Origin: Sulfolobaceae archaeon
GTDB taxonomy: Archaea; Thermoproteota; Thermoprotei_A; Sulfolobales; Sulfolobaceae
Assembly (NCBI GenBank): GCA_038893355.1
Contig: JAWARQ010000001.1
Coordinates: 160,001 to 224,000 of the forward strand
Length of the DNA: 64,000 nt
Direction of reading: 5' to 3'
In this document: in pieces, positions 1-52,054 of the stretch
How positions within the stretch are numbered: the stretch's first letter is position 1
Layout: each line of letters begins with the position of its first letter
Position numbers and translations under genes: made by a program
The notes under the pieces: generated by a model
Told to the model about the DNA's origin: nothing
The model's database searches: none
Seen by the model: the letters and a program-made list of their open reading frames with translations, nothing else

Positions 1-143
1 ATGATAGAATTGTTGGTAATTTATTATTTTATGATGGAACTACACATTTGTCATTATTTAATATTCCTAAGTATATTAGGAAAGTATTAGATGAAGAAAA
101 AAGGATATCTACTGAATCTTCACCAATTTATACTCCAGCATAA
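1..143 (+). CDS. speE: Spermidine synthase, C-terminal end (partial at window edge)
   Basis: Frame from nt 3 reads DRIVGNLLFYDGTTHLSLFNIPKYIRKVLDEEKRISTESSPIYTPA*, resembling the crenarchaeal aminopropyltransferase C-terminus. Confidence 0.7.
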   Translation, partial: DRIVGNLLFYDGTTHLSLFNIPKYIRKVLDEEKRISTESSPIYTPA

Positions 144-42039: not shown

Positions 42040-42083
42040 TCCTCGTAATAGATTTATATTCTTAGCATTAAAAAGATTTACTA

Positions 42084-42157
42084 GGGGGTCTGGCGACCCT
42101 CATCGAGATCCCCATTATTGGGGTAACAATGAAAATGGGGCTCCAGAGGCCCCTACA
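42084..42157 (+). ncRNA. Box H/ACA pseudouridylation guide RNA
   Basis: Lower stem GGGGGTC/GGCCCCT, 7+7 nt pocket, upper stem CCTCAT/ATGGGG, GA/GA K-turn, ACA 14 nt from pocket apex, TTTATA at 42053-42058. Confidence 0.75.
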
Positions 42158-42486
42158 TTTACGATAAGTAAAAAACTCTTTTAGTTTTTATCAAGATAGT
42201 ATTGCTATTGGACTACAAAATCTCTTTTTTCCTCTATAATACGTTATGAAAAATTATATTTTACATTTCTACTTTATGAGAAGAATTTTTCATGTAATAG
42301 TTTATAGCTCAATAACGACACTATCGGCCTTATTTAGAATAATTTAATTACATAATAAGTTTAATAACATGAATTAAAGCAGATAATATAACCATTTCAA
42401 TTCTTATTATGATGAGATTTGATAATGACTCATATTAATATGGAGGAAACTTTAAATGGTTATGTATTAGTAGTTCTATTAGTAGT

Positions 42487-48453: not shown

Positions 48454-49404
48454 ATGAAAATACCGCTAGTAGGTGGGAGAGAGATAGAACCATCTGAACT
48501 AGGTTTCACATTAATTCACGAGCATCTAAAAGTAGAATCTGAGGCTGTAAAATTTCAATGGCCTCATCTCTATAATGATGAACTCGCATTAAAGCTTGCA
48601 GTTGATGAAGTTAAAAAGGTAATGAGATTTGGAGTAAAGAGTATATGTGATCCTACTGTTATGGGTTTAGGTAGGGATATAAGATTTATGGAGAGAGTAG
48701 TAAAAGAGACTGGAATCCAATTACTTGCAGCAACAGGTATTTATATTTATACTGATCTACCATTCTATTTTGTAGGAAGAAGTGTAGATGAGATAGCGGA
48801 TTTGTTCGTACATGATATTAAGCAAGGCATTCAAGGTACTAAAAATAGGGCCGCATTTATTAAATTTGCAACAGATGAACCTGGTGTAACGCCTGATGTG
48901 GAGAAAGTAATAAGGGCAGCTGCTATAGCTCATAAGGAGACTGGAGTTCCAATAATAACACATTCGAATGCTCATAAGCGTACTGGTTTAGATCAACAAA
49001 GAATCTTGAAAGAAGAAGGGGTAGATTTAGGGAGAGTGTTAATAGGTCATGTGGGAGATAGTGAGGATATAGAATACGTAAAGAAAATTATTGAAAATGG
49101 ATCATATGTTGGTTTAGATAGGTACGGTTTAGATTTATTCCTTCCGATAGAGAAAAGGAATGAAGTAGTTTTAAGGTTGATCAGAGAAGGTTATATAGAT
49201 AAGATCTTTCTCTCTCAAGATTATTGTTGTACGATAGATTGGGGAATTGCAAAACCCGAAAATAAACCTAAATTGGCTCCTAAGTGGTCTATGTCATTAT
49301 TATTTGAGGAGGTTATCCCTACGTTAAAGAGGCATGGTGTTAAAGATGAGCATATATATTTAATATTTGTAGAGAATCCTAAAAGATTCTTTTCTGGTAA
49401 GTAA
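48454..49404 (+). CDS. php: Phosphotriesterase-like lactonase (SsoPox-like)
   Basis: MKIPLVG, LIHEHL, DPTVMGLGRD, THS, GH, SQDYCCTIDWG. Confidence 0.93.
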   Translation: MKIPLVGGREIEPSELGFTLIHEHLKVESEAVKFQWPHLYNDELALKLAVDEVKKVMRFGVKSICDPTVMGLGRDIRFMERVVKETGIQLLAATGIYIYTDLPFYFVGRSVDEIADLFVHDIKQGIQGTKNRAAFIKFATDEPGVTPDVEKVIRAAAIAHKETGVPIITHSNAHKRTGLDQQRILKEEGVDLGRVLIGHVGDSEDIEYVKKIIENGSYVGLDRYGLDLFLPIEKRNEVVLRLIREGYIDKIFLSQDYCCTIDWGIAKPENKPKLAPKWSMSLLFEEVIPTLKRHGVKDEHIYLIFVENPKRFFSGK

Positions 49405-49760: not shown

Positions 49761-49904
49761 AAACTACTAATTGATTTGGTATCATTTAAAGTTATTGCTT
49801 CAATAAACTTATTTTAAATAAATTAATATTTATTTTCCTATTTAATTTTATAAATTGTGACTATACATAAAACTTATAATAGCCTTAATTATAACATTAT
49901 TTAA

Positions 49905-49980
49905 GGAGGGTCTGGTAGGATCACTCCCGGGAGTAGCTATCATAGCTTCGATGAGCGGGAGTCCATAGAATTCCATTATA
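49905..49980 (+). ncRNA. K-turn small RNA (atypical H/ACA-like)
   Basis: Stem ACTCCCG/CGGGAGT, K-turn (GA 49931-32, bulge GAT, GA 49953-54), ATA 15 nt after the stem, TTATAA at 49874-49879. Confidence 0.65.
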
Positions 49981-50016
49981 GAATAGTTTATATCCTAGAT
50001 TTTAAGAATAATTTCT

Positions 50017-50583
50017 GTGCCGAAGAAGAAAGGCGAGAGAGTATTAATAGCTATTAGAGAAGATCTTGTTGAAGAGATAAATAATATTGCAAATAAGCAT
50101 GGAAGAAATTATAGAGATATCATAGAAATGATTTTAGAGCAATTCATAAAAACATATCAATTACTTAATAAAATAGAAAACTTTCATTTATATTTTATAG
50201 TATCTTACGCGTTTTTAAATTCCGGATTTGGGTTCTACCATCCAGCCCTCGGATCTTCATATATTGATGGAAATTATTCAAACTTAGGAAGGATTTTAGG
50301 GAAACATTTTTTATCGATAGGAGTATTTAGTAAAGAATTAATTGAGATTATTTTAAAATTTCTTCTCCCGCCTAATCCTAATATAGTTGTCGAGGAAAAC
50401 AGTAACGAGATTATTTTAAGGCTAAATAGTGTAATAGTAAGTAGGCCAGAAAATTTAATTATGGCCAAGAATATTATTAATGGAATTATGGAGGTTAACG
50501 GTTATAAACTAGTTAAAGAAAATTTAGAAAACATAGGTGCACAATTTTTTACTGGAGAGATTAGGTATGTTAAGCGGGAATAA
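50017..50583 (+). CDS. Putative regulator with N-terminal ribbon-helix-helix
   Basis: RVLIAIREDLVEEINNIANKHGRNYRDIIEMIL pattern. Confidence 0.6.
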   Translation: MPKKKGERVLIAIREDLVEEINNIANKHGRNYRDIIEMILEQFIKTYQLLNKIENFHLYFIVSYAFLNSGFGFYHPALGSSYIDGNYSNLGRILGKHFLSIGVFSKELIEIILKFLLPPNPNIVVEENSNEIILRLNSVIVSRPENLIMAKNIINGIMEVNGYKLVKENLENIGAQFFTGEIRYVKRE

Positions 50584-50624: not shown

Positions 50625-51173
50625 ATGAGTGGTATATCTAATGCGAGTAAAAGAAGGGCACCTTGTTTTATGGATAGCAACTTATTGGAATTTGTTAAAG
50701 CTGAGTCTAAAAAGAGAAATACGAGTGTATATAGGTACACTAATTATTTGATAGAAAATTCTTTATATATCGAGACAGTAATTGGTATGCCGTTATCTCA
50801 AGTTAGAGAATTTTTAGAGATTCTTAAATCATTAATTGATGCAGGGGGAATGATAGTACCAGTAGTTTTTCTAGGCGAGTATTGTAATGCAGAAATGTGG
50901 AAAATTTATGGAAAATCTGTTATTAGATCTATGAAAAATTCTAAAAAGAATATATCTAAAAATGATCTATTAACGATATTTTTGTATTTCTTAAAACTAA
51001 TTCCAGGAAATTCAATAAGTAGCAGTGATAATAGTTTATCAGTACTCTCAGTATATCTTAAGAAAAAAACAGCAGAATGTATCTCAAATTTCTTTTATTC
51101 AGCAGCAGAGGTTGCAGGATATAATATTAAAATTGATATAGACGAGAATTATATGAAGATAGTAATAGAATGA
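50625..51173 (+). CDS. Putative regulator with N-terminal ribbon-helix-helix
   Basis: PCFMDSNLLEFVKAESKKRNTSVYRYTNYLI pattern. Confidence 0.55.
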   Translation: MSGISNASKRRAPCFMDSNLLEFVKAESKKRNTSVYRYTNYLIENSLYIETVIGMPLSQVREFLEILKSLIDAGGMIVPVVFLGEYCNAEMWKIYGKSVIRSMKNSKKNISKNDLLTIFLYFLKLIPGNSISSSDNSLSVLSVYLKKKTAECISNFFYSAAEVAGYNIKIDIDENYMKIVIE

Positions 51174-52054
51174 TATTTGCGGGTATAGATCCTGGCTCAG
51201 AATCCTATGGTATAGCATTTGTTGATGAGTTAGGCAGAATAATAAAATATATTGAGGTACCAACAGATTTAATTCCAAAGTATGTAATTTATATTATAAA
51301 ACTTATAAGAGATTTAAGGCCTAGTATAGTAGCCTTACCTTCAGGGCACGGTCTCCCTTTTGTAAATTCTAGGCAAATAGGTGATAATGAAATATTTTAT
51401 ATGACTTTAGCTGATCCTAATAAGACTGGACACCTAAGAAGCTTTCTAAGATATTCATTCCTGATAGAGGATGCATATACAATACCGAGTGTAAAAGAAC
51501 TCGAGAGTATAGCAGAGTATAAGAAAATAAATGTAATAGATTTAGGAACTTCAGATAAAGTTGCTTCAGCGTTTTTTTATAGGACATTTTTTGAAAGTTT
51601 TGTATTAGTTGAGTTAGGAAGAAAGTTCAGTAGTATAATAGTTGTTAAGGATGGACGGATTATTGATGGATTTGGAGGAACCTTTATAGGAATACCTGGC
51701 GGAATTGATGGAGAATTAGTATATTTAATTAGTAATTTTTCTAAACAAAAAATTAGTAAAGAAAGCATATATAATGTTTTAGAAAGAAAAAGGGGGTTAG
51801 AGATTATTAGAATTATAGCAGAGTGGTACTCTAGTAAGATTGATGCACCAATAATAGTCTCGGGAAAGAATAAGCATGAATTAGAAATAGGTTTAAAATT
51901 TGAGTTTAAATTTAAAGAAGCTGCAGTTGGTGCAGCATATATAGCTAATGCAATAGGTAGTGGGATTTTTAGAAGATTCTTAGAAATGCTAAAAAGTTCT
52001 GGAAATCCATTAATACATATTAGGTTAAAGGAATGGCAAGAAATTATGTTTTAG
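51170..52054 (+). CDS. DUF1464 family ASKHA-fold kinase-like protein
   Basis: GIDPGSESY, PSGHG, IDLGTSDK, IIDGFGG, EAAVGAA. Confidence 0.85.
   Translation: MIFAGIDPGSESYGIAFVDELGRIIKYIEVPTDLIPKYVIYIIKLIRDLRPSIVALPSGHGLPFVNSRQIGDNEIFYMTLADPNKTGHLRSFLRYSFLIEDAYTIPSVKELESIAEYKKINVIDLGTSDKVASAFFYRTFFESFVLVELGRKFSSIIVVKDGRIIDGFGGTFIGIPGGIDGELVYLISNFSKQKISKESIYNVLERKRGLEIIRIIAEWYSSKIDAPIIVSGKNKHELEIGLKFEFKFKEAAVGAAYIANAIGSGIFRRFLEMLKSSGNPLIHIRLKEWQEIMF

Follow-up and report, generated by a model that had tools for sequence, protein, structure and literature searches.

A probable sR109 orthologue in a Sulfolobaceae archaeon: an atypical H/ACA guide RNA predicted to target U8 of 16S rRNA

The window analysed here is the whole stretch of 64,000 nucleotides from the genome of a Sulfolobaceae archaeon. 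Upstream of the locus of interest lie a tRNA-Met, a tRNA-Asn and a phosphotriesterase-family gene (48454-49404). Two plus-strand ORFs without a Pfam family follow downstream (50017-50583, 188 aa; 50625-51173, 182 aa), and after this pair comes a DUF1464 protein (51170-52054). Between these genes, the plus strand at 49907-49968 forms a hairpin with a textbook K-turn, a 62-nt core whose parts are listed in Table 1. The initial annotation had described this hairpin, and its coordinates were found to be exact. An A/T-rich, TATA-like element precedes the homologues of the hairpin as well, at a spacing comparable to that of the putative promoter in the window. The fold energy was not unusual compared with shuffled sequences (z = -0.92), and RNAfold in the window added a weak GGAG/UUCC pairing that has no counterpart in the homologues. 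Parts of the locus are carried by three DNA sequencing runs from two further studies, with zero differences.

Table 1. Parts of the K-turn RNA locus (window positions)
Feature	Position	Strand	Remarks
Putative promoter, TATA-like box TTATAATA	49874-49881	+	centre ~29 nt 5' of A49907; read from sequence
5' guide AGGGUCUGGUAGGAUC	49907-49922	+	A49907 is the predicted first nucleotide
16S-pairing part of the 5' guide, GGGTCTGGTAGGATC	49908-49922	+	against nt 10-24 of the genome's own 16S
Conserved 5' guide core GGUAGGAUC	49914-49922	+	
Upper stem P2, 5' strand ACUCCCG	49923-49929	+	pairs with 49956-49962
K-turn module, presumed L7Ae site	49930-49955	+	read from sequence
K-turn G.G	49930/49955	+	
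K-turn tandem sheared G.A	49931-32 with 49953-54	+	
C-stem hairpin GUAGCUA-UCA-UAGCUUC	49933-49949	+	
K-turn 3-nt bulge GAU	49950-52	+	
Upper stem P2, 3' strand CGGGAGU	49956-49962	+	pairs with 49923-29
3' guide	49963-49971	+	CC (49963-64), then AUA, then GAAU (49968-71)
Unconserved 3' tail	49972-50003	+	to the first U-runs: GUUUAU 49986-49991, UUUU 50000-50003
3'-tail segment AATTCCATTA	49969-49978	+	

At gathering thresholds, Rfam matched tRNAs alone in the window and left the hairpin unmatched. With E values relaxed up to 10, a search of 49780-50030 returned two chance-level matches and nothing more. Among the tRNA matches of the window are two of 100-110 nt on the plus strand (174-283 and 320-419, 45-46 bits) that default ARAGORN did not report; these matches probably contain introns.

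A BLAST-type DNA search of 47 genomes of the same family recovered only 2-6 recognisable homologues, and covariance models were therefore needed to follow the RNA further. A first model (R1), built from four homologues, found one strong copy in each of 26 genomes, and a second (R2), built from 24 copies, added two genomes. Together the models placed one copy each in 28/47 family genomes, covering 9/14 genera. No match was found in the other 19 family genomes, including all seven of the genus g3 and all three of g13, and the 28 rows that an exact-core pattern search returned from those 19 genomes all lacked the hairpin. Among the weak R2 matches in g4 and g5 were one probable divergent copy (G015, in g4) and two doubtful ones. 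With stricter filters, R2 gave 0 matches in a sample of 116 genomes that represent 15 further families of the class.

The structure was supported by compensatory changes. The alignment comprised 24 rows, 22 of them distinct, and was fitted to the model, which biases it towards the structure; the compensatory changes are nevertheless plain by eye. All six modelled pairs of the upper stem changed on both sides while 100% of their cells remained paired. Double changes were seen in 11/12 pairs overall, the C-stem covarying too. Across all pairs, 92.2% of cells were paired, compared with 74.0% in shuffles, and pairing fell to 41-53% in slid controls in which the partner was moved by 1-3 columns. 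In four of five whole-structure measures, 0/500 shuffles matched the observed value; for the fifth, the count of further standard pair types, 50/500 shuffles reached it. The K-turn was constant too: UGA occupied the 3' strand in 24/24 homologues, and the 5' strand carried GA in 22/24 (AA in 2). A 42-aa minus-strand ORF across the locus (49848-49976) was rejected as coding because the region shows these RNA-type compensatory changes. The covariation also bears on which strand is used. A minus-strand match to Rfam sR10 (49911-49947, 11.3 bits, E = 1.4) might suggest a C/D box methylation guide encoded on the opposite strand, but its score is far under the gathering score of 45, the CUGA D box is missing from that strand, and the covariation fits the plus-strand K-turn hairpin. 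We give such a guide next to no credence.

The single-stranded arms of the hairpin were compared with the genome's single 16S gene (G000:C1:8838-10334, minus strand). Its 5' end reads ATTCCGGTTGATCCTGCCGGACCC, as the initial annotation had given it for archaea, and because the gene starts in this way the 5' arm pairs with nt 10-24. The pairing comprises 15 contiguous pairs, two of them G-U, as the initial annotation had stated, and including A49923-U9 lengthens the run to 16. When the mononucleotides of the 62-nt core were shuffled 300 times, a run of >=15 occurred in 3 shuffles and a run of 16 in 1. Taken by itself, the 16S pairing is thus modestly unusual; the strong evidence is its conservation across homologues. 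The core GGYAGGAUC was exact in 17/24 aligned homologues. Contiguous 5' pairing from G10 outward extended over 8-15 pairs in 20/24, and the other 4 carried a one-base indel. The target is itself constant, with 16S nt 4-22 invariant in 39/39 genomes that gave a pattern match when the 47 family genomes were searched; of the 8 genomes without such a match, several have the rRNA region missing or unassembled. Guide variation was confined to C/U opposite G16, which exchanges G-C for G-U, and to the distal extension. A genome-wide search for sites of the form GG-NN-9mer, tolerating G-U, returned 18, one of them within the 16S gene. Among the 18, the 16S site alone was seen to reach 15 bp.

On the 3' side, G6-G7 can be matched by CC and A1-C4 by GAAU, so that U8-U9 remain without a partner, which bears out the pocket that the initial annotation had drawn. 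The contiguous 3' pairing of the window RNA, 2 pairs, is the weakest class; it ranged over 2-6 bp across homologues, with 3 pairs in 16/24. Directly after the stem, CCG was found in 20/24 homologues and CCA in 4/24, the window included, and the tails past this point were not alignable. Setting the last C of the guide against G10, and CCG against G7-G6-C5, leaves precisely U8 and U9 free of pairing at the foot of the stem. Counted from the pocket, the upper stem has 10 stacked layers, both G.A pairs included. This predicted arrangement, with U8-U9 unpaired below a 10-layer stem, is the geometry of an H/ACA pocket. Neither a conserved lower stem nor a conserved ACA box was found in the window RNA or its homologues, where ACA occurs at no fixed place. 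The lower stem would be missing because the guide begins at the predicted transcript start.

These features match those of a known RNA. In Sulfolobus islandicus, where pseudouridines were mapped and six Cbf5-associated H/ACA RNAs were found, sR109 is described as an atypical H/ACA RNA with a bipartite guide and 16S-U8 as its target (Li, Wu, Ye, NAR 2024, PMC11077068). According to that report, sR109 associates with Cbf5, and its deletion abolishes pseudouridine 8 of 16S and slows growth. An sR109 RNP with Cbf5, Nop10, Gar1 and L7Ae was reported to be active in vitro, with L7Ae and Gar1 required (PMC11077068). sR109 fits the window RNA by target and by architecture: both are single K-turn hairpins that lack a lower stem as well as an ACA and carry a bipartite guide aimed at 16S-U8, and both come from the same family of organisms. 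On the grounds of shared target, architecture and family distribution, we are confident that 49907-49968 (+) encodes an sR109 orthologue, an atypical H/ACA guide RNA of Sulfolobaceae, with orthology, transcription and 16S modification in this genome all being predictions. An atypical H/ACA guide for a 5'-terminal pseudouridine was one of the two functions put forward by the initial annotation, and architecture, pocket and target all agree with sR109 as published (PMC11077068). The feature is real and its likeliest function had been guessed, while this kind of RNA is one already described and experimentally validated.

Further, indirect support for homology with sR109 may come from self-modification, which was reported for sR109 at U5 and U14 (PMC11077068). 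Five homologues in g9 start with AGGGUC(AG/GG)CAGGAUC, which places U at 5 and 14 if that A is the transcription start, a placement that would fit the published sites. The GGA-U-C / UCC elements that would explain self-modification are present in the window RNA as well (U49911, U49921). The window RNA differs from the g9 copies in that its 5' guide runs over 15 nt without a bulge, whereas theirs has a 1-nt gap. Its 3' guide is CCA instead of CCG, and its downstream neighbour is a different one.

Based on this identity, a mechanism can be proposed. The RNA would be made from its own promoter and start straight with the guide, and L7Ae would bind the K-turn. Cbf5-Nop10-Gar1 would then assemble on the 10-layer upper stem without the usual anchor of lower stem and ACA. 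On the target, nt 10-24 of 16S would be taken by the 5' guide and nt 6-7 (plus nt 1-4) by the short 3' guide. U8 and U9 would thereby stay open at the stem base, where Cbf5 could turn U8 into pseudouridine. Genes for Cbf5, Nop10 and L7Ae are encoded in the genome. The Gar1 match (26.8 bits) lies under the Pfam cut-off of 29.3, a model that the S. acidocaldarius control fails too. The Cbf5 matches lie outside the window in two adjacent frames (G000:C3:64991-65960, minus strand; profile positions 4-72 and 67-319). This two-piece arrangement would fit a split or intron-containing gene, since Cbf5 of S. islandicus is said to derive from 'two exon-encoded fragments' (PMC11077068).

The proposed enzyme would be the one used by classic archaeal H/ACA guides (Cbf5-Nop10-Gar1-L7Ae), which share with the window RNA the K-turn in the upper stem, the ~10 layers from pocket to G.A and the two unpaired target bases. 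Classic guides, however, have a lower stem of 5-9 bp and, 14-15 nt 3' of the pocket, an ACA. The window RNA has neither, and assignment to the classic type was rejected. Also similar in form are H/ACA-like sRNAs of Pyrobaculum, which Bernick et al., writing in RNA in 2012, reportedly described as K-turn hairpins with a truncated lower stem and frequent loss of ACA (see PMC11077068 and PMC4652768). The window RNA resembles them in all three respects, and one of them is predicted, as cited in PMC11077068, to guide modification of the site homologous to 16S-U8. If the Pyrobaculum RNAs are homologous, they are too diverged for model R2, which found 0/116 outside the family.

The position of the hairpin 48 nt 5' of the 188-aa ORF, on the same strand, and the occurrence of L7Ae-bound K-turns in Sulfolobus mRNA leaders (PMC5539422) raise a different reading, namely that it is an L7Ae-bound leader element controlling translation of 50017-50583. 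Since the downstream neighbour differs among homologues, often being a convergent methyltransferase-like gene (identified by eye), the RNA is not tied to this ORF, which itself has no Pfam family. A leader would also have no need of conserved single-stranded arms that match 16S, and we consider it very improbable that the hairpin is one. The convergent gene, SAM-methyltransferase-like by eye, was seen next to the sR109-type gene in several genera, at L050:885-1574 (+) and also in L036, L037, L045, L047 and L053. The reading frame for its C-terminus (...GSF(I/V)C(V/I)EA...) stops where the RNA gene has its 3' end or overlaps that end; this neighbour is absent from the window.

The other function put forward by the initial annotation was that of a U3-like chaperone pairing with both strands of the 16S central pseudoknot, and here the second strand did not hold up. 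The tail segment AATTCCATTA does match TAAAGGAATT of the genome's own 16S (~nt 875-884), the distal strand of helix 2, at 9/10 positions, but its longest contiguous run is 6, and 84% of shuffled tails equal that run. The match reuses A49969-U49971, three of the four GAAU nucleotides that are needed for 16S nt 1-4. In 26 homologous tails, a conserved match to the distal helix-2 strand was absent: 5/26 reached p <=0.05, at differing places and partly inside the convergent gene, and the match is not retained in close relatives. Because the tail match is at chance level and the 5' extension is variable, a two-site chaperone is not demanded. The window RNA resembles eukaryotic U3 in that it pairs with the 5' end of the small-subunit rRNA, across the pseudoknot's 5' strand, and has a K-turn of the type bound by an L7Ae-family protein. 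U3, in contrast, belongs to the C/D class with boxes A/A', B/C and C'/D, has the 5' ETS and a second 18S site as further pairing partners, and carries out no modification. None of these U3-specific features is present or conserved in the window RNA, and no C/D family match lay above the Rfam threshold. To our knowledge, archaea lack U3.

The pairing of the 5' guide may nevertheless bear on ribosome assembly. Following the E. coli 16S model, we place nt 12-14 in helix 2 and the 5' strand of the central pseudoknot within nt 10-18. Any guide for U8 covers nt 10-18, including this strand, and the RNP would therefore have to act before the pseudoknot forms. This leads to a reading in which the sR109-type RNP is bifunctional: besides or instead of forming pseudouridine 8, it would hold nt 10-24 single-stranded and so set when helix 1, helix 2 (the central pseudoknot) and helix 3 can form, in the manner of box A of eukaryotic U3. 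It would then be an H/ACA-based archaeal counterpart of U3 box A, and the growth defect upon deletion would stem at least in part from a lost chaperone step. In its favour, a guide at this site cannot avoid the 5' strand of the pseudoknot, and a 15-bp arm is a long one by the standard of H/ACA guides; against it, the homologues do not keep the part of the guide outside the 9-nt core, and in 9/24 of them contiguous 5' pairing is 9-10. Eukaryotic H/ACA snoRNPs with folding roles do exist, for example snR30 and snR37; in the window RNA, on the other hand, no C/D-type boxes or 5'-ETS pairing were noticed, and the second contact is the chance-level, unconserved one described above. The published deletion does not separate modification from binding, but its authors ascribe the phenotype to modification (PMC11077068). 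On balance we regard a dual function as unlikely, and favour a guide for pseudouridine 8. If a dual function were true, it would bear on the timing of the central pseudoknot in archaea.

For the guide RNA itself, the analysis yields the correct annotation of a previously unannotated gene of an already known kind of RNA. Rfam 15 is without a model for sR109-like RNA, and genome pipelines therefore miss the gene. What is added is a covariance model, together with the observation that the target geometry of sR109 is kept with compensatory changes in at least 9/14 genera. Over this range the 5' guide forms anything between 8 and 15 contiguous pairs, with no such variation in the 10-layer stem or the CCG 3' guide.

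A second RNA of the window had been linked to this one through the string GGGTCTGG, which the two share. The string is indeed present at 42086-42093, but we judge it a coincidence between two different H/ACA RNAs. The RNA at 42083-42158 (+), for which Rfam gives no match, is a candidate of the classic type: its lower stem is made of GGGG/CCCC and UCUGG/CCAGA, it carries a K-turn hairpin, and its ACA (42155-57) begins 15 nt past the upper stem. A compensatory change from U-A to C-G in the lower stem is seen in the homologues of G002 and G003 (L063, L064). A strict bipartite search of stable RNAs gave no target for it, and a role as guide for U35 of tRNA-Tyr was rejected. In a relaxed scan, the best rRNA fit was U930 of the genome's own 16S (6 + 4 pairs). 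In S. islandicus this site is assigned to the multi-target classic guide sR435, and since the best fit is the site assigned to sR435, the RNA at 42083-42158 is probably an sR435 orthologue.
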